A stretch of DNA of 32,000 nt from Candidatus Saccharimonadota bacterium (lineage in GTDB: Bacteria > Patescibacteriota > Gracilibacteria > BD1-5 > UBA6164), in contig OY782392.1 in the NCBI GenBank assembly GCA_963677765.1, positions 300,001 to 332,000 of the forward strand. The letters are read 5' to 3'. The position numbers were made by a program, and so were the translations under genes. Of this stretch, positions 5,564-32,000 are shown piece by piece. The first letter of the stretch is position 1. The number at the start of each line of letters is the position of its first letter. The notes under the pieces were generated by a model that saw nothing but the letters and a program-made list of their open reading frames with translations, did no database searches and was not told the origin of the DNA.

Positions 5564-6466
5564 TTAATTAGTATTTAATTTTTCATAATTTCTAAACCAA
5601 GTTAATTGTCTTTTTGCATAGTTTCTATTATGTTTTTTTACCAACTCTATACACTCTTCTAAAGATATATTTCATTCAAGATAAGATATAACTTCTTTGT
5701 ATCAAATAGTTTTCATTCAAAAATGATCTTTAGAATATTTATCAAGTAATTTCTTAACCTCATCAACTAATCAATCATCAAACATCATTTGAACTCTTTT
5801 ATTTATTCTTGAGTATAGATATTCTCTATCTCAGTTATATGGAGTCAAAAATAAAATATCATAATTTAGTTTTTTAGTAGTCCTAAACTCTAATTTACTT
5901 TTTCAGCTAAGTTTTTTTACCTCTATAGCTCTAATTACATATCTATAATTATTTGGATGTAACTCTTTTGCATATTTTGGATCTATTTTATTTAATTCAT
6001 TCCAAATATATTCATTACCAAATTCTAATCTTTTTTCTTCAAGTTCATTTCTTAATTCTTCATTAGCTGGAATTTTTGGAATATCAAAATCAAAAATTAA
6101 ACTATCAATATATAATCAAGTACCTCAACATAATATAGGAATTTTTCATTTAGATAATATTTCATTTATATGATTTGTTGCTTCTTGCTTAAACTCACCT
6201 ACACTATATTCTATATCTGGCTCTATTATATCTAACATATAATGATTTATTCAAGACATTTCATCATTAGTTATTTTTCATGTTCAAATATCTAAATATT
6301 TAAATATTTGCCTAGAATCAGTTGAAATGATTTCTGAATCTATATATTTTGCTACATCTATACTCATTGAAGTTTTTCAACTTGCAGTTGGTCAATATAT
6401 AACAATTATTTTTTGTTTTGAGGATTTTTTATTTAAAAACTCATCAACTTTTTTATAAAAACTCAT
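5564..6466 (-). CDS. miaA: tRNA [24 protein letters not shown]
   Basis: 300 aa: ...[21 protein letters not shown]...[20 protein letters not shown]...ILCGGTGLYIDSL...[11 protein letters not shown]. Both P-loop glycines are TGA codons. Confidence 0.92.
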
Positions 6467-6608: not shown

Positions 6609-6684
6609 GCCACTATAGCTCAGCTGGTAGAGCATTCGCCTTGTAAGCGAACGGTCATCGGTTCAAGTCCGATTAGTGGCTCCA
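6609..6684 (+). tRNA. tRNA-Thr (anticodon UGU)
   Basis: Hand-folded cloverleaf: acceptor gccacta/tagtggc, D stem gctc/gagc, anticodon stem ttcgc/gcgaa with loop cTTGTaa, T stem atcgg/ccgat, encoded CCA. Confidence 0.9.
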
Positions 6685-6762
6685 TCTATTATAAAATAAA
6701 GTTACGAAATACGAGTTTAAAATATTTTATCTTTGATTCGTAATTCGTATTTTTTTTAAAAT

Positions 6763-6847
6763 GGGCAGATTCCAGAGCGGCCAAATGGGGGGGACTGTAA
6801 ATCCCTTGTCTACGACTTCGGGGGTTCGAATCCCTCTCTGCCCACCA
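6763..6847 (+). tRNA. tRNA-Tyr (anticodon GUA), long variable arm
   Basis: Acceptor gggcaga/tctgccc, anticodon stem gggga/tccct with loop ctGTAaa, long variable arm, T loop ttcgaat, encoded CCA. Confidence 0.88.
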
Positions 6848-6905
6848 TGTTAAAAAAAGATTTAAAAAAAACTAGTTTTAAAAGGACTAGCATTTTTTAT
6901 GTTTA

Positions 6906-6990
6906 GCCGGGGTGATGGAATTGGTAGACATGTTGGTCTTAGAAACCAATGCTTAATCGCGTGCGAGTTCGAGTCTCGCCCTCGGCACCA
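6906..6990 (+). tRNA. tRNA-Leu (anticodon UAG), long variable arm
   Basis: Acceptor gccgggg/cctcggc (one G-U pair), anticodon stem ttggt/accaa with loop ctTAGaa, long variable arm, T loop ttcgagt, encoded CCA. Confidence 0.88.
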
Positions 6991-7052: not shown

Positions 7053-7307
7053 ATGAAAAAAGGAATACATCCAGAATCTAAAGAAGTTTTATTAGTAGAT
7101 AGAAGTGCTGATTCAGTTGTAAAAGTAAAAACTACAGCTAAAACTACTGATACTTATGAACATGAAGGTAAAGAATACCCTTGTATTTTTATAGAAACTT
7201 CTTCAGCATCTCACCCATTCTATACTGGTGAACAAAAAATCCTTAAAACTGGTGCAGTTGATAAATTCTACGCTAGAATGAAAAAATCAGAAGCATTGAA
7301 AAAATAA
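7053..7307 (+). CDS. rpmE: 50S ribosomal protein L31
   Basis: MKKGIHPESKEVLLVDRSADS...SSASHPFYTGEQKILKTGAVDKFYARMKK. The classic MKKGIHP start and HPFYTG motif are present. The track ORF from 7011 is an upstream over-extension. Confidence 0.9.
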   Translation: MKKGIHPESKEVLLVDRSADSVVKVKTTAKTTDTYEHEGKEYPCIFIETSSASHPFYTGEQKILKTGAVDKFYARMKKSEALKK

Positions 7308-7310
7308 AAA

Positions 7311-7346
7311 TAAACTCTACATTTTAAGTAGAGTTTATTTTTTTAA
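7311..7346 (+). terminator. rpmE intrinsic terminator
   Basis: Stem taaactctac / gtagagttta, 7-nt loop, T-run at 7338-7346. Confidence 0.75.
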
Positions 7347-7354
7347 AAAAAATA

Positions 7355-7381
7355 TTGACTTATATTTTTTTTATATATAAT
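7355..7381 (+). promoter_or_regulatory. Putative rplJL promoter
   Basis: TTGACT at 7355-7360 and TATAAT at 7376-7381. The spacer is only 15 nt, so the exact -10 is uncertain. Confidence 0.45.
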
Positions 7382-7384
7382 CAT

Positions 7385-7518
7385 AGTACTTTCTATGTCA
7401 AAGACAGTGGGCACAAAATAAGACCTACCGAGATAATAGAGGAATAGATTTTAAATTAGATATAAAGTTTAAAAAACTCTAATCCTTTTTCTTTGACTTA
7501 AAGAAAAAGGATTTTTTA
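7385..7518 (+). promoter_or_regulatory. rplJ 5' leader with terminator-like hairpin (L10-leader-type attenuator candidate)
   Basis: About 180-nt untranslated leader. It contains ...caaagacagtgggcacaaaataagacctaccgag... and a strong hairpin aatcctttttcttt / aagaaaaaggatt (7481-7513) followed by a T-run, ending about 45 nt before the rplJ ATG. Confidence 0.55.
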
Positions 7519-7560
7519 ATACTAGAAAGTAATAGTTTATATTGATAATAAAAAACAACA

Positions 7561-8133
7561 ATGGCTGTTTCAAAACAAAAAAAAGTTGAGATATTTAACG
7601 AATTAGTTGAAAAATTCAAATCTGCTGAATCAATTGGTTTTTCATCTACAAGTGCACTTAGTGTTGAAGATTTTGCAAAACTAAGAACTTCTTTAAGAGA
7701 AGTAGGATCTACTTATACTTTAGCTAAAAAAACTATTATAGTAAAAGCTATAAAAGAAGCTAGAGATATTGAAATTAACTTATCAGACTTAGAAGGTCAA
7801 ATCTGAGTAGTATGTTCTAATGAAGATGCTGTAGCTGGTTTAGGTAAAGTTAACGATTTCATGAAAGCTATAAATAAAGATGCTGATAAAATGGAATGGG
7901 CATTATCTATATTTGAAGGAGAATTAAAAGACAAAGAAGAAACAAAAATAATTGCTTCTATGCCTTCAAGAGAAACTTTACTTGGAAGATTGGTTGGTTC
8001 TATGAAATCTCCTATTTCTGGAATGGCAAGATTCTTTGATGCTGCTGCTAAAGAACTTGAAACTACTGGAAAAGCAAAAGTTAGTGAATTAGAAGGAAAA
8101 AAAGAAGAAACTTCTGAAGAAGAAGCTAAATAA
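7561..8133 (+). CDS. rplJ: 50S ribosomal protein L10
   Basis: The two track ORFs (7561-7806 and 7861-8133) are in the same frame and are joined through a single TGA=Gly at 7804-7806. The 190-aa product has an L10-like sequence and an acidic C-terminal tail. Confidence 0.9.
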
Positions 8134-8140
8134 TTGATAT

Positions 8141-8280
8141 TTGGTTCATTGATTCCCTATTTTTAGGGAGTCATTAACTAGTTATCAATAAAATAACTAG
8201 AATAGTTCATTGTAGAGCTTGATTCAGTGTCTGTTAAGAACTGAATCTAACGGATATTGAACTAAAATTCTACAATGAAA
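8141..8280 (+). other. Structured rplJ-rplL intergenic RNA element (three nested or adjacent hairpins)
   Basis: Hairpins are gattcccta/tagggagtc (8151-8172) and ctagttat/ataactag (8178-8200). A long-range stem ttcattgtaga/tctacaatgaa (8206-8216 with 8269-8279) encloses gattcagt/actgaatc (8221-8247). Confidence 0.5.
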
Positions 8281-8320
8281 TTTTAAAAAATTTTATTTTA
8301 TATTTTTAATTTTTGCAAAA

Positions 8321-8695
8321 ATGGCTGAATTAACAAAAAATGCACAACAAATTATGGACTTAGTTAAAGAATTAACTATAGTTGAATTAAATGACTTAGT
8401 TACTGCTATGGAAGAAGAATTTGGTGTTAGTGCTGCTGCTCCTGTTATGGTTGCTGGTGCTGGTGCTGAAGGTGGAGCTGATGAAAAATCAAGCTTTAAC
8501 GTTGAATTAACTTCTGCTGGTGCTTCTAAAATCGGTGTAATTAAAGTTATAAGAGAAATAACTGGATTAGGATTAAAAGAAGCTAAAGATATTGCTGATA
8601 ACGGTGGTATGATTAAAGAAGGAGCTTCTAAAGACGAAGCTGAAGAAATTAAAGCTAAATTAGAAGAAGCTGGTGCTTCTATCGAATTAAAATAA
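8321..8695 (+). CDS. rplL: 50S ribosomal protein L7/L12
   Basis: 124 aa: ...[23 protein letters not shown]...[27 protein letters not shown]...[14 protein letters not shown]. No TGA codons. Confidence 0.95.
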
Positions 8696-8738: not shown

Positions 8739-8862
8739 CTTTTAAATGTTTTTTCTTAACAAAAACTTAACAAAAACTATATTTTTTATAGCATAAAAAT
8801 TGACATAGACTAACATTTTTATAAAATGTTTGAGCTTATAATTATATAATAATTTGATACAT

Positions 8863-9285
8863 ATGAAATATTTATATTCACTAGTATTATTAGTATTCTT
8901 AGCTTCTTGTACAAATGGAGCATGAGTGACTAATGAAGAAACTGTAGATAATGAAAATACTTCTACAGAAGTAACAAACTCTGAAATTGATGAAGCTATG
9001 GAAGAAACTTTTTCAGAAGAAGAATCTAATGAAGGTCTAACTATGTTAGATGCTACATATACTAACCCTCAAGCAGAAATTGATATGAAAATTTACTATA
9101 GCTTAAACGAAGCTAATGAAATTGAAGAAATTTATGCTGAAGCTAGTAATTATGATATGAGTGCATTTAATGAAAATATCCAATATTTAGTAGGTAAAAC
9201 TATGGAAGAAGCAGAAAATGTTTATGTTTCTGGTAGTTCTCTTACTAGTGAAGCTTTCACAAGTGCTATAAAAAATAACATGTAA
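8863..9285 (+). CDS. Acidic lipoprotein with FMN_bind-like C-terminal domain (putative ApbE substrate)
   Basis: MKYLYSLVLLVFLASCTNGAG... has a signal peptide and lipobox LASC, and is joined through one TGA to the track ORF at 8926. The C-terminus ...IQYLVGKTMEEAENVYVSGSSLTSEAFTSAIKNNM resembles the end of FMN_bind domains (..VD.VSGAT.TS.A...A..). Confidence 0.6.
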
Positions 9286-13868: not shown

Positions 13869-14090
13869 AAATACCTAGTATATTTTAAATTTTATAAATA
13901 AGTAATAAAAAACGTTAATTTTTAAAACATTCCACTTCGTAAATAAAATATATAAATTTTCAAAAACTTGCCCAATCAAAGATTGGACTTCAAACAGTTT
14001 GAAAATTTATATATTTTATATTTACTTGTTACATTTAAAAATTAAATTTTTTTTATTATCTTATTTAAAAATTAAATACTAGGTATTTTT
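13866..14090. repeat. About 225-bp imperfect palindrome (long inverted repeat) between convergent genes
   Basis: The outer 15 nt, aaaaatacctagtat / atactaggtattttt, are perfectly complementary. An inner perfect 20-nt pair lies at 13945-13964 and 13998-14017. A central mini-hairpin is ccaatc-aaa-gattgg (13972-13986). The arms are about 105 nt and mostly complementary by hand alignment. Confidence 0.8.
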
Positions 14091-15548
14091 ATTTAAGAAA
14101 TTTTCTTTTAATTTTTTAACAGCTTCTATATCAATCTTTTCAAGATTTTTTACAACAAATGGTTGTCTAGTTTTTTTGAAAGTATCAATATTTTCAGATA
14201 CAAAAGACCAATACAAATAATTAAAAGGACAAGAATCACTTTCATACTTATTTTTAACATTATATTCACAATTTGTGCAAAAGTCTGACATTTTGTTAAT
14301 ATAATTTCAACTAGAAATATATGGTTTTGTAGCTAATCTTCATCAATCAGAAAATTGACTCATTCATAATACATTTGGTGAAACTACCCATTCAAAAGCA
14401 TCGCTATATTTTTCAAAGAACCACTTATTAATTTCTAAAGGGGTTACTCAAGTTAATAAGCAATAATTTCATATAACCATAAGTCTTTCTATATGATGTC
14501 AATAACTATTTTCTAAAACTCTTTTAATACTAGTTTTTAAACAATTCATTTTACAACTATCTAAATTTTTTCACCAAAAATATACTGGAAGAGTATTAGA
14601 ATTGTTAAAATAATTATTTTTATAAATATCATCTTTATAAAAATGAAAAAAATGATACATATATTCTCTCCATCAAATAACTTGTCTAATAAATCATTCT
14701 TTGTTATTTATTTCTGTATTTTGATTTTCTATTACAGAAACTACTTCTCTTGGTGACAATAATCAAAAATTTATAGCTGTAGATAAATTAGAATGATAAA
14801 CATAATCATCATTTTCATACATAGCATCCTCCAGTTTTCAAAAGTTTGGAAGATTATTTTTTACAAAATAATTCAATAAAATTATAGACTGTTCCCTATT
14901 TGTAGGATAACTTATAAATCAATCAAAATTATAAAATTTTTTTGCTTCTATTAATCATCTTGTTTCATCTAATATAAGTTGATTAACTGATTTGTGATTT
15001 TTATCAAATCATCTATTATCTTTATCATAATTCCATTTTCATCATATTGGATTATTTCAGTCCATTAAAATATCAAACTTTTTTCTCATATATCTATAAA
15101 AAGTCTCCATAACAGGAGGCTTTTTATATTTTGATAAAAACTCTTTATGACTTAAATAAAAACTTTGATTATCTTCTAAAAAAATTAAATCAATATTATT
15201 TGAAGTTAATTTATCTTTTATCTTTAAAAAATTTTCATAAACATAGTTTTCTACAGGTTTTATAACATAAACTTTTGAGAATCATCATTTATTACAAAAA
15301 TCTAAAATTTCATTGTAATAACTATTTGAGACCTTAAACTCTCATGAAAATCCTTTATTATTTAATTCTTCTATAAAATTATATCACATTGCATAATCAA
15401 ATATTTTTGATTTTATATTCAAACTTAAATTTTCATCATTAAATCTTATATTTCAATTATGATGAATATATAAAAAATACTTTGATAAACTTGTATCAAA
15501 ATAGTTTATATTTATTTGATTATATAATATTAAAAAAAAGCTCTTCAT
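14079..15548 (-). CDS. FeS-BCP type cryptochrome/photolyase ((6-4) photolyase PhrB/CryB-like, iron-sulfur cluster containing)
   Basis: 489 aa: ...GWREYMYHFF...SYGHHIERLMVIGNYCLL...[55 protein letters not shown].... The C-terminal Cys pattern and the PFN.LYW motif are typical of the Fe-S bacterial cryptochrome/photolyase group. TAG at 14079-14081. Confidence 0.85.
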
Positions 15549-15871
15549 TATTTTTTTATTAATTGATTTAATTTATTTTTAGCATCATCTAAATTAGATT
15601 CATAAACAATGATATCATCCTGTAAAATAATTCATTTATCATTATTTTTTAAAAATACTATATTATCCCATCATTTAAAATCACAAACCTTATACCATAT
15701 ATTTAAAAGATTTTCTCTATCTTTAGAGTCTATTTGTAAATATTTATTTTTTAAAGCTAAGTTATACTTTTCTCTTTCATAAGGTCTTAATCTATGTGAT
15801 ATACTTCTAGATCAAATATTAATTCAAGATTTTTTTCATCTAGTTAAATTATCAATATGTTCAAGTTTCAT
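15548..15871 (-). CDS. Hypothetical 107-aa protein translationally coupled to the FeS-BCP gene
   Basis: MKLEHIDNLTRGKKSGINIGSRSISHRLRPYEREKYNLALKNKYLQIDSKDRENLLNIWYKVCDFKGWDNIVFLKNNDKG...*. Its TAA overlaps the downstream ATG by 1 nt (TAATG). No family recognised. Confidence 0.55.
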
Positions 15872-16014
15872 AAAAACTATTTATTAACTAATATTAAAAA
15901 TATATTAAAAAAAAATAATATTTTTGCAAATATACTTAAATATATATAATCTGTATATAGGATTGAAGCCCCTTAGTACATTTAACTATTTTTAAAAAAG
16001 TTATTTGTAAATAA

Positions 16015-17502
16015 ATGAAAAAAGATATACAACTTATTTGGTTTAAAAAAAATCTAAGAATAAAAGACAACGAAGTATTTAATTATTTAGATAGAGATAC
16101 TGAAACAGTCTGATTTTATTTAATAGAAGATGAAATAGTAAGACAAAGAGATTTTTCATACTTTCATTTAAAATTTATTATTGAAAGTCTAATAAACTTA
16201 GAAAAAAATTTAAAAAAACTAAATATAAAACTAATTATAAAAAAATCTAATTTTGAGGATTTTATAATAAATATAGAAAAAGAGTTCAATATAAAAATAA
16301 TAGTTTCAACTCAAGAAACTTGAAATATAGCATCATATAACAGAGATTTAAGAGTTATTAATTTTCTAAAAAATGAATCTATTGATTTTTTAGAAGTGGA
16401 AAATAATTGAGTAGTTAGATGATTAAAAAATAGAGATAACTGGACAAAAATTTGGAATAAAAGAATGTGAAGTGATATTTTTTTAGAAAAGAAATTTAAA
16501 AAATTTAATAATTTTGAGAAAGAGCTAATTCAATCTAAAATAATTCTAGAAAAATATAAAGAAAAAACAAAGCATTTAAAAACTCAAGAATGATGAGAAG
16601 ATAATGCAGTAAAAATTCTAGATAGTTTTTTAGATAATAGGTGTAAAAATTATTCCTATAACATATGAAAACCTTATGAATCAGAACACAGTTGCTCTAG
16701 ATTATCACCATATATAACATATTGAAATATATCAATAAAGTATATTTATCAAAAATCCATAAAAAAAATATTAGAATTAAAGACTGATTTAGATGAAAAT
16801 AATCTCAAAAAAATCAAACAAATAAACTTTTTTTTAGCTAGAATTCATTGGCAATCTCACTTTATCCAAAAACTTGAGTCTCAAGTAGATATTGAGTATA
16901 AAAATTTGAATAAAGAATTTGATAAAATTAGAAATAAATCTGATATAGAAATAATAAATAATTTTTTTAATGCAAAAACTGGTATACCATATTGTGATGC
17001 CGCAATTAAATGTTTAAAAACAACTTGATGGATAAATTTTAGAACAAGAGCATGTTTAGTAAGCTATATATGTAATACAATGATGCAACCATGGCAATCT
17101 ATTTGAAAAAGACTTGCATGCTTATTTACAGATTATGAACCATGAATTCATTATTCACAGTTACAAATGCAATCCTGAACTACAGGAATAAATACCATAA
17201 GAATTTATAATCCAATAAAACAGTCAAAAGAAAAAGATCCTCAATGAAAATTTATAAAAAAATGGATACCAGAATTAAAAGAAATTGATATAAAATATAT
17301 ACATGAACCATGGCTTAGTGATAAAAAAATTGAATGATATAGTAATAAAATTGATATAGAAGAGTTAAACAAAAAAGCAAAAGAAGTATTATGGTCTACA
17401 AAAAAAGAAATAACTAAAGATAAAAAAAATAAAATAATAAAAAAGCATGCTAGTAGAAAAAAAATAAATAATAAAAACAAAAAGCAACTAACAATTTTTT
17501 AA
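16015..17502 (+). CDS. Cryptochrome/photolyase-family protein, divergent subfamily, with lysine-rich C-terminal tail
   Basis: 495 aa: MKKDIQLIWFKKNLRIKDNEVF...SRLSPYITYGNIS...FLARIHWQSHFIQKLE...GIPYCDAAIKCLKTTGWINFRTRACLVSY...[38 protein letters not shown]. The tail is KKEITKDKKNKIIKKHASRKKINNKNKKQ. Confidence 0.8.
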
Positions 17503-17504
17503 AT

Positions 17505-17645
17505 ATGAAAATTTATGAAAGATGACAGTACAAAGAGGCAAAGCTATGCCCTATTTGTAAAAAATATTTTAGTATAAGAAAAAAATGGAAAAATAGTTTT
17601 GAACAAGTAATTTATTGTAGTGATAAATGTAGAAAAAATAAATAA
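17505..17645 (+). CDS. DUF2256 small zinc-ribbon-like protein
   Basis: 46 aa: MKIYERGQYKEAKLCPICKKYFSIRKKWKNSFEQVIYCSDKCRKNK. It has the CxxC...RKKW...YCSxxCR pattern of the DUF2256 proteins that commonly flank photolyase genes. The start is 2 nt after the previous stop. Confidence 0.7.
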
Positions 17646-17731
17646 TTGATATTAGAACTAAAAAAAATATACTATAATTAGTAGACGGATAAAGCTCTCG
17701 CCAATTTGTTTTATCCTATAAAAATAAAAAC

Positions 17732-19051
17732 ATGTACAAAAAATCTATTTTTTGGTTTAGACAAGATTTAAGAACATATGATAATGTTTGACTTTATAAT
17801 GCTGTAAAAAATTCAGAAAAATTATTAGTTATATTTATACTAGATAAAAATATAATAAATGATTTTTTATGATTAAACGATAAAAAATTCTGATTTATAA
17901 GAGAAGCTTTGGAAAGATTGGATTCTGAGATAAAAAGTTTATGATGAGAATGATTAAAAGTTTTTTATGATAAACCTGAAACCTTAATTCCTGAACTAAC
18001 TAAAAAATACAATATAAATGCAGTATTTACTAACAGATCATACTGAAATTATTGAAAAAAAAGAGATGAAAGCATTAAAAATACTTTATCTAAAAGTAAT
18101 ATTGAATTTTTAAGTTATAAGGATTACTTACTAGTAGAACCATGGGAAATAGAACAAAGAAAGGTATTTACACCATTTTATAAACTATGGCAAAAGATAG
18201 ATTTTGATACTAATGAGTACAAAATAACTGATAAAATAGACTCAATAAAAATAGAAGAAAATAATAAGGCAAAAGATTATATTTCTATAGAAAAACATCC
18301 TTATTTTACAATGGATTTTTGAGAAAAAAGACTGGAAAAATACATTACAACTGATTATGATTTATATAGAAATGACTTAGATAAAGACTGAACATCAAAA
18401 CTATCACCATATCTTAGATTTTGAATATTTTCTGTAAGACAAATATATAATTTAGCAAAAAATATTAACCAACATTTTGTTTCAGAAATGGCTTGGAGAG
18501 AATTTTGGCAACATATTGATTACTATTTCCCTGAAACTAAAAAAATAGAATTTCAAGAAAATAAAAGACATATAAAATGGAGACATGATGAATACTTATT
18601 TGAAAAATGGTGTAATTGAGAAACTTGATATCCTGTTGTTGATGCTGCAATGAAACAATTAGTAGAAACCAATTGGATGCACTGAAGAGCTCGTATGATA
18701 GTTTCTAGTTTTCTAACAAAAGATTTACTTATAGATTGGAGATGGTGAGAAAAGTTTTTTAAAAAACATTTACTAGATTATGATGAAAATGTAAATTATT
18801 GAAACTGGCAATGGTGAGCATCTGTATGAGCTGATCCAAAGCCATTACGTATATTTAATCCTATACTTCAATCACAAAAATTTGATAGCCAAGCTAAGTT
18901 TATAAAAAAATATATACCTGAACTAATAAACCAAAATACAAAAGCTATCCATGACCCAATAGATAATGAATTAGATTATACTAGAATAATAGTTAATCAT
19001 AAAGAGGCTCAAAGAGAAACTAGATTAGTTTATAAATGAGAAAAAGACTAA
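17732..19051 (+). CDS. phr: Deoxyribodipyrimidine photolyase (class I-like or Cry-DASH-like CPF member)
   Basis: 439 aa: MYKKSIFWFRQDLRTYDNVGLYNA...TSKLSPYLRFGIFSVRQ...MAWREFWQHI...[37 protein letters not shown]...[31 protein letters not shown]. Confidence 0.88.
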
Positions 19052-19068: not shown

Positions 19069-19125
19069 GTTGTATAAAAAAGATATGATAAAATATTATT
19101 AAATATACAATTTAATAATACTATT

Positions 19126-20697
19126 GTGTTCCAAATAAAAACAATAAATATTCAAAACTTTAGAAGCATAGATTTTCAAACAATAAATTTTTGAAAAAAT
19201 AAAACAGTTCTAGTATGAAAAAACAGCAGTTGAAAAACTGTGATTTTAAAAGCAATTGAAAAGTTATTAAATTCAAAAAAAATAAAAAGAAAAGATTTTT
19301 TAAACAAAAACAAAAAATTAATAATAGAAGCTATTATAGTAAACAAAGGTAAAGAAGTTTCTATAAAAATAGAATCTATATTTAATGAAGAAAAGCAAGA
19401 AGCAAATACAAAAAAAATAAATTTCAACAACGAAATTGAAAAAATAATAGAAAAAATAAATGTTATATATATACCTAGTGACAGAAAAATAAACAAAGAC
19501 AATAAGGAGAATTGATATATGAAACTTATTGACCTAATATTAAAAAACAAAGAAATAAATCAAAAAAAATCAATATATACTAAAAAAGAAGTAAAAAAAC
19601 TAAACAAAAAATCTTGAAGAAAGAAAACAACTCTATTAATAACTCTTTTAAGACTATATTTATATAGTATAAATAATAAAAATAACAAAGATTTTACAGT
19701 TTTTATTATTGATCAACCTGAAAACTTTTTGCATCCACATGCAACAAAAATGATTGATTCTATACTACAACAAATATGAGAATTAGAAAATACACAAATA
19801 TTTTACTGTACTCATTCACCTGAACTAGTTTCAAATTTTAGAAAATGAAAATATGAAATTTCTGATATATTATTCGTAAAAAATGAATGAGGGATAACTA
19901 AAACTCAAAAAATTGATAACAGATATTGAAGATTTAATAAAATAATGATAAATTTAATTTTTAAAAATGCTTCTATATTTTTCTCTGATGCTGTTATACT
20001 AGTAGAATGAGAAACTGAAAAGATATCTATACCAAATATATATGAAAATATAAACTGGAATAATTATTCTAAAATAAATAAAAAAAATATATCAAAAGAA
20101 GAAAAAATTAATTACTTTAACTTGAATCATAAAAATATTAGTGTTATTGATGTTTGATGAAAATGAGCACTATATGAGTGGTATGTTTTTGCTTGTGAGT
20201 TATTTTGAAGAGAAAATGTTATAGCATTAATAGACAGAGATGAAAATTTCTATATAGATCGTGATATGATTATAAAATCTATTAGAAAAATATATAAAAC
20301 ATGACCTATTTTTGAAAATGATTTCAAAAAATATAATTGGATAGTCTTAAATTGAGAATTTGAAAACTATTATAAAATTGATTCTATAAAAACATATATT
20401 ACAGAAGTTATTACTTCTAGAGCTGAAAAATTTTGAGAAGATTTCGATCAAGAAAAATTTGATTTAAGTTTAGATAAATTAGATTCAAGATTAAAAAAAT
20501 TAAAACAATCAAAGAAAATATCTAGTGAATATGAAAGGTTATTTAATTCATATTTTAGAAAATATTCAAAACCTACTATAGCATTTAATTTATCAACATG
20601 GTTAGCACAAAATAATTGATATGATGAAGAATTATTAAAAATATTTGCAAATATGATTGAAAAATTTGATAAAAATGAATCTAAAAATAAAAAATAA
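19126..20697 (+). CDS. OLD-family ATP-dependent endonuclease (ABC-type ATPase + Toprim), stand-alone
   Basis: About 523 aa: (V/M)FQIKTINIQNFRSI...LVGKNSSGKT (P-loop), FIIDQPENFLHP (Walker B-like), YCTHSPELV, then Toprim AVILVEGETEKISIP (20002-20019) and ALIDRDEN. The start is uncertain between GTG 19126, which gives the canonical N-terminus, and ATG 19084. Confidence 0.75.
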
Positions 20698-24992: not shown

Positions 24993-27900
24993 TTATTTAT
25001 TGTCATCTTCTGTCTTTAACCAGTCTGGTATCTTCATTCAATCATCCCATAACTCTGTTGAGTCTTGAGTTTTTTTAGTTTTAGAATCAGAAGTTTTATC
25101 TTCTTTTTTTACAGACTTTTTAGTTGTTTCTTTAGATGAAGTAGTAGATTTATTATTAGACTTAGTCTTGTCATCTTTTTCTGATTTTTCTTCTTTTTTA
25201 TCAGTAGAATTATCATCAATTGATTTATCTAAATCTTTATTATCTTTTTTATCAGATTTTTCATCTGACTTTTCAATACTTCATTTTAACCAATCTGGTA
25301 TATTATCTTCTGAAGTATCTTCTTCTTCGTCTAAATCTATTTTAGTAAGATTATCTAAATCTTCTTTTGTATCCATTTTCGGTAAAGATTCTTCTTTTTT
25401 AATAGAATCAGATTTATTATTAATAGAATCTTTTTTATCTAAATCAGAATCAGAGTTAGAATTTATTTCTTCTTTAGATTTAGAAGATCACACTTTTGTT
25501 AAATCTTTTTTATCTAAAAGGTTTTTAGATTCTTCTTTTTTATCAATTTTTATATCCTGCTTTTTAGGATTTTTTTCTTTAACAATTTCTTTTTCTGATT
25601 CTTTACTCTCAACACCTTCATCTTCATCAAAACTTCCCTTTAACCAATCTGGTATTTGGGATTTAGTTTCAGTTGAAGTAGTATTAGTAGCAGCTTTATC
25701 TAAATTAGGTTTATATGTTTCTACTTTTGTATTATCAATTTTTTTAGATTGTTCTTTATCATTATTTAAAGATATTTTTGTATCATTTTTATTATTAGAA
25801 CTATCTAGTGGTTTATTGATAACTGGATCACTTATTTTATTTTCTTTAAGATTATTTTCCTTAGGTTTAGTATCAAAACTATCATCAAATCATCATTTTA
25901 ACCAATCTGGAACATCTCAAGAATTAGTATTTTTAATATTATCCTTTGTTTCTATATTATCATCTTTTTTGTCTTGTTTATCAGTTCAAGTTAGAGGATC
26001 TTTTATATCATTATTTGATACATTTTCTTTTGGTTTATCATCATAAGAAAACGGATCAATAAATTCATCTTTTGTAGATTCATTATTAGGTGATACTTCT
26101 CATGATAAAGGATCAATATTATCTGATTTTTTTTCTTTTATAGTATCATCTCAAAGAATATCTCATAAATCAGAAATATCGTCTTTTACAGTTGAATTTC
26201 AACTAGATTTTCATCAAGTTTTTTCTGAAACAAATTCTGAAAAAGACTTATTTTTATCTTTATTAACAAGTTTATAATAAATAAAGAACAATACAATTAC
26301 AAATGTAAATAATAATATTATATAAAATATAATTTTTAATATAAACAATATTGCATCAATAACTCATGATCAACCTGTAGTTCAACCGATAACTTCATCA
26401 TTTTTAGCAACCTCTTCTTTTTCTTGTTCAGGTATATTATTAACACCTCAATATACAAATGTATTTAATATTGCCTTGAAATCATTTTTTTCTTTTACAG
26501 ACATATTTGGATCTTCAGCAACATTTCTAAGAATTTGTTTTCATAAAACTACATTTTCTTCTACATTATCATTTTCTGATATAACTTCTAATTTTGCAAC
26601 CAATAATTGATAACAAGTAACATTTTCTCACTCAACTTCTAATGATTCTTCTTCGATACAAGCTATATTAGTTGGTAACATGTTTTTTAATGCAGTTAAA
26701 GCTATTGCTTTTTCTGTTCTATCTGCTTCACCATCAACTAATAATCATTCTAATATATCTATTATTTCTGCAGAAGAAGATAATCATGACTCATCTAAAT
26801 AAGTAGAAAATTCTAAAATAACATTAGTTTTTTCTCTATTATCATTCCATGCTTCTTTTAATCTTTGAACATACATTAATCATTTTAATTTATGTTCTTT
26901 AGGAAAAGAATCTACTTTATTTTTAATTTTTTCTAATTGTAATTTTACTGAATCAGAAACTCATTCAAAAACTATAGAACTTGAATCAATCATTTCATCT
27001 TCCTCAATATATTCTTTTAATATAATTATATCTCTAGAATTTATAACTTTTCAAGATGAATCTTTAGTAAATATTCTTAATTTTTGTTCTCTAAATTCAT
27101 TTAATTCAATTTTTAAAGGATTTCATGAAAAGTAACTATTATCATTCTTGTTATCTTCATCATCATCATTTCATCAATTCAAATCACTATCAATTTCAAT
27201 ATCATAATCTACAACATAATTTTCTGCTTTATCATCAAATGCAAAATATAAGAAAACATTATCAATTTCATCTTTTAAAGTAATAATATTATCTTCTATT
27301 TCATTATTTGAAATAACTGGAAAATCTTGTTTTCTAATATTTATTATATTAGCTACATTTTTTGTAACTTTTTTTGTTATATCTCTTATTTTAGTTCATT
27401 CAGTTAATTTTAATTTAACTAAATGTACATTTTTTGCATCTTCATATGTATAAACAAAAGATCCGTTAGTAGTAATTTTATTTCAATCTCACATATCCCA
27501 TTCATACTCAGCTCAAACTCATAAACTTTTATCAAAGAATATATAAGTATTACCATAAGAGTAATAATCAAAATCTGGCTTTAGTATATTTGATACATTT
27601 ACAGTAACTGTTTTAGTGTTTGAGAATCATTTATTTGATACTTTTACTTTTGCTCTTTTTTCTCAAGAACTATTATAAGTATAAGTAGTTACATTACTTG
27701 TTGTTTCTTTATCATAAAATCAATCCCCATCAAAATCCCAAGAAAATTTTACTTTATTATTTAAATTTTGTCCTAATATATTCTCTGCATTTGCTGAAAA
27801 AGTAACTTCATCACCTATTCAAACAGATGAATTATTTACAACTAAATCTAATAAAGGTGTATTTACATTATCTCATGTAAGAGTGATAAAGTATTTTGAA

Positions 27901-30290
27901 CCTGTTATCTCTTCTGAAATAGATCTTTCTTCATTGTTGTCTTTCATTACTACAACAAAATAGTAATTTCAAGTAATTTTAGGTAAAACAAATGAAGTAG
28001 AATCAGTTTTAGTAGCTCTAAAATCTTGAGGCTCAGGGTCAACATCAGTATAGTAATACCATAAATAAGATTGTATTACACCATCTCTATCTTGAGCTCA
28101 AAGAGCACTAATATTAACAATTACTGGATCAGTTTCAGTGTCTTTTACTCTTACATCTAATCATGATAAAGTAGGTTTAATATTTTCAACTTTTATATTT
28201 ATTGTTTTTGAGTCTTCTCTTCAGTTTTTATCACTTTTTACAACTAATTTTAATTGTTCACAACCTAATTCATCAAATTTTTTATTAAAAGATTGAGAAC
28301 TATAAATAGAACGTCATAAAGTCCAAGAATATGATAATCATGAATTTTGTCATGTAATATCTAAACTTTCTTCTCAAGAAAATGTAAAATTATCTACCCT
28401 GTTAACTAAATATGCTCATTGTCATCCACATGCTCTTGGATCAAATGCAACTTCATTTCATTTAGGATCTTTCAAAGTTATATATGCATAAGGAGAGTCA
28501 GTATCTCAAATATATACATTTCTAGTTAAAGTATTTTCATTATCATTACTATCAATAACTTTTAATTTAACTCAATATACTCATGATTTTTTAAATACAT
28601 GAGAAATAGTTCAATTACTTCAACCTTCTTTTATTCAATCTCCAAAATCCCATTCATAAAATTTTGCCTCTGGAGAATCCGCAATAAATCTTATAGTCTT
28701 ATCTCTTTGCGATACTCTAGGAAAAATATTAAAATCAACGGATAAAATTGATCTAATATCTACCTTAGTATTTTTTTGGTTAACTATTCCTTCAGGATCA
28801 GTTACTTCTAATGTAACAGAATGTTCTCATATAGAATCAAAAGTATAATATCAATTAGAACCATTATAATTAGGTCTATCTAGATTTACTCTGTTTCAAT
28901 CAATTACCCAACTAAACTCTAATTTTCAATCATCAGAATAATCAGGATCATAAGATGAAGATCAATCTAAAAATACTGTATTAGGTCTATGAGAATCTGT
29001 AATACTATGGCTAAATTCAGCTACTGGAGCTCTAGAGTTTATATATATAATTTTTGTATCTATATCTACCTCTCCTGAAGGTTCAGTAACATATAGCATA
29101 ACATTATATATTCATTTTTCTGTGAAAGAATAATTAAAAGTAGAAGAAGATTTATTTAATATTTCTTCATCATTTTTTATATCAATTATTCTCCATGAAT
29201 AAGTTAAATATTCATTTCTAGAAGTAGGATTAGCAGTAAAAGTAAAAGTATCTCACATATATCCTTCATCAGAACTAGCTTTTATAGTAGCTATAGGATT
29301 ACTAACTATTAAATCAAATTCCCTTTTTACAGTTTTTCATTCATTAGTTCTAAGTTCTAGAGTTACATCAAATTCTCACTCATTAGCATATACAACTCTT
29401 TCAACTTTTGGAGCTCAATCATATGTTCTTTCAACTCAATTACCAAAATCCCAACTAGTTCTTGTAAATTTAGTTCAAGATGTAGGAGTAGAACTTGTTG
29501 CATCAAATAATAATCAATATTTTGCTTCTTCTGGTGAAAATTTTAATTCATCTCTATTTCATAGATTATCAGAATTAACTTTTACTATAACGGATGCTAC
29601 TTTTTCCTTTACAGAAACTGTAACTCTTGAAGAAAATGGTAAAACATCAGTGAATCATTGAGAATTTTTATGATTAGATGTTACATCTAAAAATACAGAA
29701 TAATTTCATTCTTCATTAAAAGTATAATTGATAGAAGACCTATTTCACAATACTTTTCTTTTTCATCAATCATTAATCCACCAAGTATAATTATAGTTTT
29801 CTAATTTTGTTCAAGTAGGATCTTCAACATTTCATCTAAGAGTAACTGTTAAAGGAGCATTTCAAGTAGAAGGAAATGATTCTATATTACCTCTGATTTT
29901 TTGTATATTAACTTTGTTTAAATAGTCCTCTATTGAACTAGATATAGTTTGAAATTGAGAAGAGTTTTCAGGATATTTTAATCCTCTTTCTATAGAACTT
30001 TTTAAAGAATTATAGTAATTTTTATTAATCAAATTATCAGGAAGATAATTAAGTCAATTTTTTGCTAACTCTAAAATCCTTGCTGAAACAACCGAGTCTA
30101 TAACTCAGTTTACTTCAAATTTATTTTTTAAATCAATATATTGATCAGTTATTCTATATCTATATTCGTTAAACGTATTTAGATCAGAAGGAGTAATTGT
30201 CGTATACTCAGTATCAGCAGCACTAACATAAGTTGGTGCTATAGCAGATATAATCAATATAAATAATGTAGTTAGTACTTTTTTAAACAT
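24993..30290 (-). CDS. Giant (1765-aa) secreted multi-PKD-domain protein with C-terminal TM anchor and K/D/E/S-rich tail bearing four PDWLK motifs
   Basis: I checked every codon of the frame from 30290 to 24993 and found no TAA or TAG. Signal peptide MFKKVLTTLFILIISAIAPTYVSA/AD. About 8-9 repeats of roughly 90 aa carry PKD signatures (APLTVTL, TSWDFGNG, YEWDFGDG, FSWDFDGDG, YEWDMGDG). These are followed by an acidic helical region, a TM helix (about 26270-26365) and a tail of about 430 aa. Confidence 0.85.
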
Positions 30291-30447: not shown

Positions 30448-30975
<528 letters not shown>

Positions 30976-31086: not shown

Positions 31087-32000
31087 ATGGATTTATATAG
31101 TGTCTTATGAGTTGATAAAAATGCAAGTAAAGAAGAAATAAAAAAAGCTTACAGAAAAAAAGCTATGGAATACCATCCCGATAGAAATCCTGGTAATTCT
31201 GAAGCAGAAAAAAAATTCAAAGAAGTTGGTAGTGCTTATGAAGTATTATCAGATGACCAAAAAAGAAAACAATATGATATGTTTGGTTCTACATGATGAC
31301 AATCTTGATCTAATCCATTTGGATGAGCAGGAGTAGATGTAGATTTATGAGATATTTTTGAATCATTTTTTTGATGAGGTTTTTGATCTTGATCTAGAAA
31401 AAGAAGAACTGAATTCCCTTGAGAAGATTTAGAATACAATATAAATATAGACTTAAAAACTAGTATTTACTGATGAAAAGAAAAATTAAGTTTCAATAAA
31501 AAAGAAACATGTAATACATGTAATTGAGAATGATGATCAAATAAAAAAACATGTCCTAAATGTAATTGAAGATGACAAGTTACAAAAACTAGTCAAAGTA
31601 TGTTTTGAATGATACAACAAACTGTAACATGTGATGAATGTTCTTGAAGCGGAGAAATTTTTGAAAGCATATGTAATGATTGTAATTGAGAAAAAAGAAA
31701 ATTTATAAAAAAAGAAATAGATTTAGATATACCTGCATGAATTGATGATTCTATGGTTATAAAACTAACTTGAGAATGAAATCATTGAGTATGAACATCT
31801 GCAAAATGAGATTTATATGTTAGATTTAATGTAAATCTTGAAGAAAAATGATTAACAAGAGAATGAGTAGATTTATTTTATAGTATAGAAGTTGAAGTAG
31901 TTGAAGCTGTATTATGAACAAATAAAGAAATAAATATACCTATATTATGAAAAAGGAAAATAGAAATTAAATCATGAACAAATCATTGAAATATTATAAA
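31087..32000 (+). CDS. dnaJ: Chaperone DnaJ (3' end outside window)
   Basis: [37 protein letters not shown]... (J domain, HPD), a G/F linker FFGGGFGSGS, and four zinc-finger repeats CNTCNGEG, CPKCNGRG, CDECSGSG and CNDCNGEK. Most glycines are TGA. Confidence 0.93.

Follow-up and report, generated by a model that had tools for sequence, protein, structure and literature searches.

The reassigned glycine codon TGA is strongly depleted from ribosomal protein genes of BD1-5 Gracilibacteria

In bacteria of the BD1-5 group of Gracilibacteria, the triplet TGA is read as glycine. We have analysed a 32-kb stretch of contig OY782392.1 (called the window below, meaning the whole of that stretch) in which TGA is the majority glycine codon of ordinary genes, and find it almost missing from the genes for ribosomal proteins (r-proteins) L31 (rpmE), L10 (rplJ) and L7/L12 (rplL). 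Pooled over these three genes, only one of 29 glycine codons is TGA, whereas 25 other genes of the window use TGA for 453 of 549 glycines (~83%; Fisher p = 3.3e-19). The GC content of third codon positions (GC3) is ~0.10 in the r-protein genes and in the remaining genes alike, and therefore local base composition is not the cause. The depletion is general within BD1-5, is kept up against ongoing synonymous turnover and is independent of operon and region. Judging from these codon patterns, we consider it quite probable that a mutation-selection balance acts on the reassigned codon, in which mutation would fill ordinary genes with TGA while translational selection would clear it from the most heavily translated ones.

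The counts are based on 28 window genes defined with TAA and TAG as stops (Table 1). Calling of open reading frames (ORFs) was crude, taking the longest ORF from its first ATG, and the background includes a few spurious ORFs that overlap tRNAs, too few to matter. The L31, L10 and L7/L12 matches all exceed the curated cut-offs of Pfam, and the rplL product matches both Ribosomal_L12 (93.5 bits) and Ribosomal_L12_N (64.3 bits). A preliminary description of this DNA, made by hand counting, had reported GGN for all four glycines of rpmE, one TGA among about 12 in rplJ and about 33 among about 40 in a dnaJ fragment, and the exact counts agree; it had also described ssb, miaA, the photolyases and the giant PKD gene as dominated by TGA, which they are. 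For rplL it rightly noted that TGA is absent but gave 14 glycines where there are 13. It further claimed that a standard-code ORF finder would recover only the r-protein genes whole; this is true of rpmE and rplL but not of rplJ, which would be cut at codon 82. Its central suggestion, of selection against the reassigned codon in those genes that are expressed most highly, is now supported by replication in related loci, by codon turnover, by contrasts within gene clusters, by the wider codon bias of r-protein genes and by a background TGA level that tracks AT content.

Table 1. Positions and glycine codon counts of the features of the window discussed in the text
Feature	Position	Strand	Glycine codons	Remarks
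miaA, comparator	5564-6466	-	TGA 14/17	Pfam IPPT, E = 5e-83
tRNA-Thr(UGU), tRNA-Tyr(GUA), tRNA-Leu(UAG) cluster	6609-6990	+		ARAGORN, Rfam; 5' of rpmE
rpmE (ribosomal protein L31)	7053-7307	+	0 TGA, 4 GGN	Pfam Ribosomal_L31, 64.5 bits, E = 1e-17
rplJ 5' leader, L10-leader-like	7380-7526	+		Rfam RF00557 L10_leader over its full length, 35.6 bits, E = 7e-4; below the gathering score of 44
rplJ (ribosomal protein L10)	7561-8133	+	1 TGA, 11 GGN	Pfam Ribosomal_L10, 62.3 bits, E = 5e-17
Sole in-frame TGA of rpmE, rplJ and rplL	7804-7806	+		rplJ codon 82, in frame with start 7561
rplJ-rplL spacer, 187 nt	8134-8320	+		-57.6 kcal/mol, z = -8.5 against shuffles
rplL (L7/L12)	8321-8695	+	0 TGA, 13 GGN (9 GGT, 4 GGA)	
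Lipoprotein-like gene	8863-9285	+	TGA 1/5	Just 3' of rplL; no Pfam family
Photolyase-family gene 1, comparator	14079-15548	-	TGA 23/24	
107-aa ORF	15548-15871	-		Within the photolyase-family span 14079-19051
Photolyase-family gene 2, comparator	16015-17502	+	TGA 15/17	
Photolyase-family gene 3, comparator	17732-19051	+	TGA 19/19	
Giant PKD-repeat surface protein, comparator	24993-30290	-	TGA 78/102	L100 orthologue: Pfam PKD, PKD_4
ssb, comparator	30535-30975	+	TGA 7/10	Pfam SSB
dnaJ fragment, comparator	31087-31998	+	TGA 33/40	Pfam DnaJ, DnaJ_CXXCXGXG, DnaJ_C

The source organism uses genetic code 25, with TGA as glycine (BD1-5/Gracilibacteria, GTDB class JAEDAM01), as follows from ORF coverage, from the presence of TGA at known glycines and from its Gracilibacteria relatives. 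At 23.2% GC, the window holds 17 ORFs of at least 100 aa under translation table 11, amounting to 6.9 kb, and 51 such ORFs (39.9 kb, summed over both strands) when TGA is read as sense. In-frame TGA occupies the G positions of all four CxxCxGxG motifs in the Pfam-identified dnaJ gene, the P-loop glycines of MiaA (GPTASGKT) and the glycines of a patatin GGGxxRG motif. Where an in-frame TGA faces a standard codon in orthologue alignments, that codon is one for Gly in 511 of 932 cases, with Ala second at 9% and Trp outside the top eight, while TGG aligns with Trp. All of the closest rplL relatives carry the label Candidatus Gracilibacteria (BD1-5), among them the closed genomes CP042461.1 and CP017714.1 as well as HOT-871. 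The absence from BD1-5 of prfB, which encodes release factor RF2, has been reported previously (Sieber 2019). A tRNA-Gly of any anticodon was found neither in the window nor in the 23 related loci scanned. As a separate observation on the code, CGA, CGC and CGG are unused in the 28 window genes and CGT occurs just 8 times; a reassignment of CGA/CGG to Trp has been proposed for the sister group Absconditabacteria (Shulgina and Eddy 2021), and in this window both of those codons are merely absent.

Every related locus that we fetched repeats the pattern. A scan of species-representative genomes with rplL provided nine BD1-5 loci of 23-42% GC, a scan of metagenomes with rplJ provided eight more, and look-ups of rplL homologues three more; wherever a source was named, the best 120 matches in each of the protein searches proved BD1-5-like. 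Using rplA from one metagenomic locus as a seed gave a further five loci with the gene order pheT, rpsT, infC, rpmI, rplT, rplA. Within each locus, TGA makes up 0-25% of the glycine codons of rpmE, rplJ and rplL and 25-85% of those of neighbouring genes, and the totals over ~17 distinct BD1-5 loci (22-42% GC) are 1/216 for rplL, 2/52 for rpmE and 26/220 for rplJ. The rplA-seeded loci add S20 (2/17), L35 (3/30), L20 (2/28) and L1 (8/119), bringing to seven the r-protein families in which TGA stays at 0-12%, compared with 25-85% in the background. Noise from the sampling of three short genes, the outcome that the preliminary description had itself set against its suggestion, would be a natural concern given just 29 glycine codons in the r-protein genes of the window. 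However, a p value of 3e-19 and the presence of the pattern in every one of ~17 further loci and in four more families rule it out for all practical purposes, and we assign it a negligible probability.

The depletion is not a static relic. Among 14 species, all seven invariant glycine columns of rplL show both GGT and GGA, with GGA in ~30% of cells and TGA in none of 98, and both GGT and GGA are likewise seen in three of the four invariant glycine columns of rplJ. Since GGA is one AT-favoured G-to-T step from TGA, TGA must arise repeatedly at these positions and be removed. In the same species, the invariant glycine columns of miaA, ApbE, an NQR-like gene and other ordinary genes are 73-89% TGA. 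These data bear directly on a historical lag, in which slow-evolving r-protein genes would simply retain their pre-reassignment GGN codons without any selection on codon choice. The rplL protein is indeed 71-91% identical across full-length BD1-5 genome loci, as a lag of this kind would lead one to expect. But glycine codons have turned over between GGT and GGA even where the residue has not changed, GGA is common in r-protein genes despite lying a single favoured step from TGA, and equally invariant glycines of ordinary genes have gone to TGA, such that we regard a historical lag as very unlikely.

Contrasts inside single clusters are similarly informative. In the rpsT-infC-rpmI-rplT cluster, the gene for initiation factor IF3 (infC) uses TGA for 27 of 51 glycines, versus 7 of 75 for the flanking genes for S20, L35 and L20 (p = 9e-8), and in five genomes IF3 carries TGA at near-background or higher frequency. 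The co-transcribed genes rplL and rplJ also differ (1/187 versus 20/190, p = 1e-5), with rplL being twenty-fold stricter, which fits the 4-6:1 stoichiometry of the ribosomal stalk (4-6 copies of L7/L12 per L10). Highly transcribed regions can show distinct mutation spectra, and on these grounds one might propose a regional or transcription-linked bias in which the G-to-T mutation rate of r-protein operons differs from that of other genes. This proposal is difficult to reconcile with the equal GC3 of r-protein and other genes, with a TGA-rich IF3 gene lying amid those for S20 and L35/L20 in five genomes, or with the large difference between two co-transcribed genes, and we therefore give it very little credence.

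It is also highly improbable that the r-protein genes lack TGA as a consequence of recent import from standard-code organisms. The synteny of miaA, the tRNAs, rpmE, rplJ, rplL, the lipoprotein gene and ApbE is conserved across BD1-5, the r-protein genes share the extreme AT-rich third positions of their host, and their closest relatives are those of other Gracilibacteria. For certain TGA-free genes of related loci, foreign origin does appear to be the explanation: a purC/purE fusion (0/21; L094 8516-9832) that is missing from L096, an inserted gene pair (0/25; L096 2225-3348) that is missing from L094, and a 206-aa protein, hyp206 (0/13; L101 18752-19372). A PEP-CTERM-like protein is also low (1/18; L005 10754-11302). 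Such TGA-poor non-ribosomal genes are probably recent imports from standard-code organisms.

Avoidance of TGA is accompanied by a broader codon bias. The r-protein genes rank top among all genes in their use of C-ending two-fold codons, with AAC at 0.56 versus 0.13 in other genes, TTC at 0.38 versus 0.10 and ATC at 0.15 versus 0.02. They also favour NNT in four-fold boxes, having more GCT, ACT and GTT, and they contain zero AAG and zero AGG codons. No codon is avoided more strongly or with greater significance than TGA (log odds ratio, lnOR, -3.3 +/- 0.24), and only AAG has a comparable value (lnOR -3.15, with a wide error).

The abundance of TGA elsewhere is readily accounted for by base composition. 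The TGA fraction of background genes is 0.82 at 23% GC and drops to 0.27 at 42% GC (rho = -0.89, p = 2.5e-5). In ordinary genes the TGA:GGA ratio is 10:1, which is under the 23:1 T:G ratio of four-fold sites; therefore, mutation bias alone explains the dominance of TGA, and no selection in its favour is needed. Under the mutation-selection balance that we propose, AT mutation pressure would convert GGA to TGA, a synonymous change under code 25, and because this conversion is continual TGA would become the majority glycine codon in ordinary genes. Each UGA decoding event may cost more than the decoding of GGU or GGA, and at the top translation rates this cost could be big enough for selection to purge TGA almost fully. 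Exclusion would then scale with protein output, being strictest for rplL, followed by the single-copy r-proteins, with elongation factor EF-P intermediate and with IF3 and ordinary genes at or near background. On this gradient, the variable behind the depletion is presumably translation rate.

The preliminary description had named slower decoding, less accurate decoding and a scarce tRNA as candidate causes. What the cost consists of can be approached at the level of individual sites. In an Akashi-type test on eight families of ordinary genes, TGA is used at 360 of 464 invariant glycine columns (77.6%) and at 212 of 267 variable ones (79.4%), and GGN is not enriched at conserved glycine sites (Mantel-Haenszel odds ratio, OR, 0.82, p = 0.40), in a comparison of modest power. 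The TGA fraction is also flat over gene quintiles, whether species are of low GC (p = 0.35) or of higher GC (p = 0.17), again with modest power. Because both site-level tests are negative, we refrain from naming accuracy or premature termination as the cost, and instead lean towards a cost at the gene level, in per-event elongation time or in the supply of tRNA-Gly(UCA). We infer, in other words, that elongation efficiency or tRNA supply matters more here than site-specific errors.

The alternative to slow decoding or scarce tRNA is a cost in accuracy. Code 25 divides the UGN box among three amino acids, Cys (UGU and UGC), Gly (UGA) and Trp (UGG). If UGA were misread by tRNA-Trp(CCA), or UGG by tRNA-Gly(UCA), the burden of wrong protein would grow with expression. 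Ambiguity between Trp and Gly in this box has been flagged previously (Shulgina and Eddy 2021), and a 2026 paper in Nucleic Acids Research (NAR) predicts that code-25 genomes must avoid UGA-reading variants of tRNA-Trp. In addition, no other common codon apart from AAG is avoided to a comparable degree in r-protein genes, which also speaks for an accuracy cost. The negative Akashi-type result speaks against it, within the limited power of that test, although an error burden that scales with expression need not leave a signal at individual sites. The accuracy explanation is thereby weakened, and we consider it unlikely.

Expression was represented by stand-ins, chiefly the r-proteins themselves, plus EF-P, pilin, RecA and SufBC. 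When genes were listed blindly by how TGA-depleted they are relative to their own locus, the list yielded L1, EF-P (7/19, where the background is 0.77), a type IV pilin-like protein (0/9) and the lipoprotein that lies 3' of rplL. Low values are also seen within one clade for RecA (3/38 to 6/36), SufB/C and the sigma factor, whereas Rrf2, RNase T and RsmH stay high. Orthologues of the lipoprotein-like gene are found 3' of rplL in L001, L006, L083 and the HOT-871-type loci (L091-L093), and orthologues have mixed TGA usage (2/9, 2/6 and 5/7). The gene follows the rplL terminator and has, at 8800-8827, the best sigma-70-like promoter match of the region (TTGACA, 16 nt, TAAAAT; 11/12). It is a possible further example of a highly expressed gene.

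Several observations weigh against the mutation-selection balance, or against the breadth with which we apply it. The r-protein genes of the lowest-GC genomes gain TGA, reaching 6/12 in rplJ and 7/20 in rplA of L090, and glutamate dehydrogenase in the same locus holds TGA at 27 of its 34 glycines. For non-ribosomal genes, the relation between TGA fraction and an independent codon-bias index is weak when six species are pooled (rho = -0.20, p = 0.058), and among the 23 non-ribosomal genes of the window the TGA fraction is uncorrelated with a non-glycine codon index (rho = 0.07). Genes for EF-Tu, GroEL, DnaK and RNA polymerase, and those of the S10, spc and str clusters, do not occur within 10 kb of rplL, rplA or dnaJ in the BD1-5 loci. 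Furthermore, all of the loci belong to one order (BD1-5), and because they are phylogenetically related the pooled p-values overstate independence.

If a balance of this sort is at work, glycine-coding TGA looks mutation-driven and selectively disfavoured, a codon that is tolerated rather than preferred, as fits models of the codon-capture type. A disfavoured TGA contradicts a published suggestion of optimization (PMC10746230). In the kinetics of decoding by tRNA-Gly(UCA), the price that bacteria pay for a naturally altered code would become measurable. There are also practical consequences. TGA content may flag recently imported genes, and a TGA-free phage genome is by itself no evidence of standard-code compatibility. 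The r-protein markers of these bacteria come through wrong-code gene calling. Trees based on them should be sound, whereas checks for recoding that rely on r-proteins should under-detect it. A live case of r-protein genes outlasting wrong-code annotation is L098 (JGI contig Ga0496661_0000007), for which the public gene calls are mostly shredded into pieces of 30-130 aa. The genes for S20, L35, L20 and L1 are called whole there, and so too is IF3 despite its 5 in-frame TGA codons; the gene list of L098 probably mixes calls made under different codes.

A far-reaching version of our proposal, which we think quite unlikely to hold in full, is that UGA decoding is intrinsically costly, that TGA persists purely by mutation pressure and that the translation machinery forms a TGA-free, 'code-independent' core, with consequences for tRNA-Gly(UCA) and for phages. 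If true, ribosome synthesis would be insensitive to the supply of tRNA-Gly(UCA), and the level of this tRNA could tune the expression of nearly everything but the ribosome, or a phage could target that expression. The TGA-free phages of code-25 hosts would then be codon-optimized rather than adapted to two hosts.

The rpmE-rplJ-rplL locus has other structured elements, which we regard as context for the codon finding. The rplJ leader ends in a terminator-like 15-bp hairpin plus T-run (7481-7513), and the fold of 7385-7560, which includes this hairpin, has z = -4.1. This leader is probably a divergent autoregulatory attenuator, and as such would mark a canonical autoregulated r-protein operon. 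The spacer between rplJ and rplL begins with a hairpin directly after the rplJ stop (~8134-8188) that is kept with compensatory changes in all 12 BD1-5 spacers aligned; a second hairpin (~8214-8275) is present in 10 of the 12, and over the whole predicted fold there are cases with both sides changed at 18 of 39 pairs. Neither hairpin is followed by a T-run, and the spacer has no Rfam match. The spacer could be a processing site, a binding site for L10/L12 or an element affecting rplL translation.

The tRNA cluster upstream of rpmE is also found in 14 related loci (e.g. L001-L006). Its position ahead of rpmE-rplJ-rplL echoes the thrU-tyrU-glyT-thrT-tufB...rplKAJL arrangement of Escherichia coli, although tRNA-Gly, tuf, secE, nusG, rplK and rplA are missing from between here. 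Elsewhere in the window, three photolyase/cryptochrome-family genes are clustered at 14079-19051, which is notable for a reduced genome of ~1 Mb; by Pfam, the cluster encodes one photolyase-related protein (DPRP) and two proteins with DNA_photolyase and FAD_binding_7 domains. Positions 19078-20697 encode an OLD-family nuclease-like protein with an AAA_15/AAA_21 ATPase and an OLD-like TOPRIM domain, likely an anti-phage defence gene.

Depletion of TGA from r-protein genes is unmentioned in Hanke 2014, Sieber 2019, Shulgina and Eddy 2021, Kantor 2013 and a 2022 study of ribosomes of the Candidate Phyla Radiation (CPR), and likewise in the 2023 phage study, a 2023 study of synonymous usage under alternative codes, and the 2026 gTranslate, Strigamonas and 4-bp anticodon-stem papers. 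We thus found no prior report of it for code 25 in a literature that does not extend to Campbell et al. 2013 and Rinke et al. 2013.

Mycoplasma, with its code 4, is likewise a case of a low-GC bacterium in which RF2 was lost and UGA was captured by a tRNA with U34, becoming frequent under AT pressure. There, UGA as Trp is said to have been first discovered, by Yamao in 1985, within the r-protein genes of Mycoplasma capricolum, and hence is not excluded from them. A literature search on the exclusion of UGA-Trp from code-4 r-protein genes returned nothing. For the same organisms and the same codon as ours, it has been argued that a high genomic TGA content implies abundant alternative-code tRNA, such that TGA-dense phages are translated efficiently, and TGA-free phages were regarded as standard-code compatible (Liu et al., mBio 2023, PMC10746230). 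The r-protein data presented here argue the opposite, namely that TGA is non-preferred. Absence of TGA can stem from translational selection or from foreign origin.

Comparable findings exist for reassigned stops in eukaryotes. In Blastocrithidia, cytosolic r-protein genes contain few reassigned codons, and the frequency of these codons falls as protein abundance and codon adaptation index rise; the authors ascribe this to translational burden (mBio 2025, PMC12153298). That system differs in being eukaryotic, in having three reassigned stops and in that its reassigned codons are a minority; moreover, UGA is decoded there by a near-cognate tRNA-Trp whose anticodon stem is shortened and which competes with eRF1. 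Here, in contrast, we are dealing with a bacterium reported to be without RF2 (Sieber 2019), in which the reassigned codon is in the majority. In the ciliate Oligohymenophorea sp. PL0344, reassigned UAA and UAG are reduced in the top-expressed 10% of genes, and the authors suggest translational inefficiency (PLoS Genet 2023, PMC10553269). Expression was measured in that case, whereas r-proteins serve as our proxy for it; the effect there is modest, and the lineage and codons are different.

A close parallel is the translational selection classically described for synonymous codons of bacterial genes with high expression, familiar from Ikemura and from the codon adaptation work of Sharp and Li. 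As in that case, the bias is centred on r-protein genes, extends to C-ending two-fold and NNT four-fold codons and is countered by a genome-wide mutation bias; it may also be graded with protein output. Unlike in the classical case, the disfavoured codon is a former stop with a dedicated tRNA-Gly(UCA) that differs from its synonyms at the first position. It is also the majority codon (83%) in ordinary genes, which makes the swing from 83% to 3% unusually large. Classical codon-bias theory predicts such a depletion, and the avoidance of TGA in r-protein genes adds a clear new instance of an established principle.

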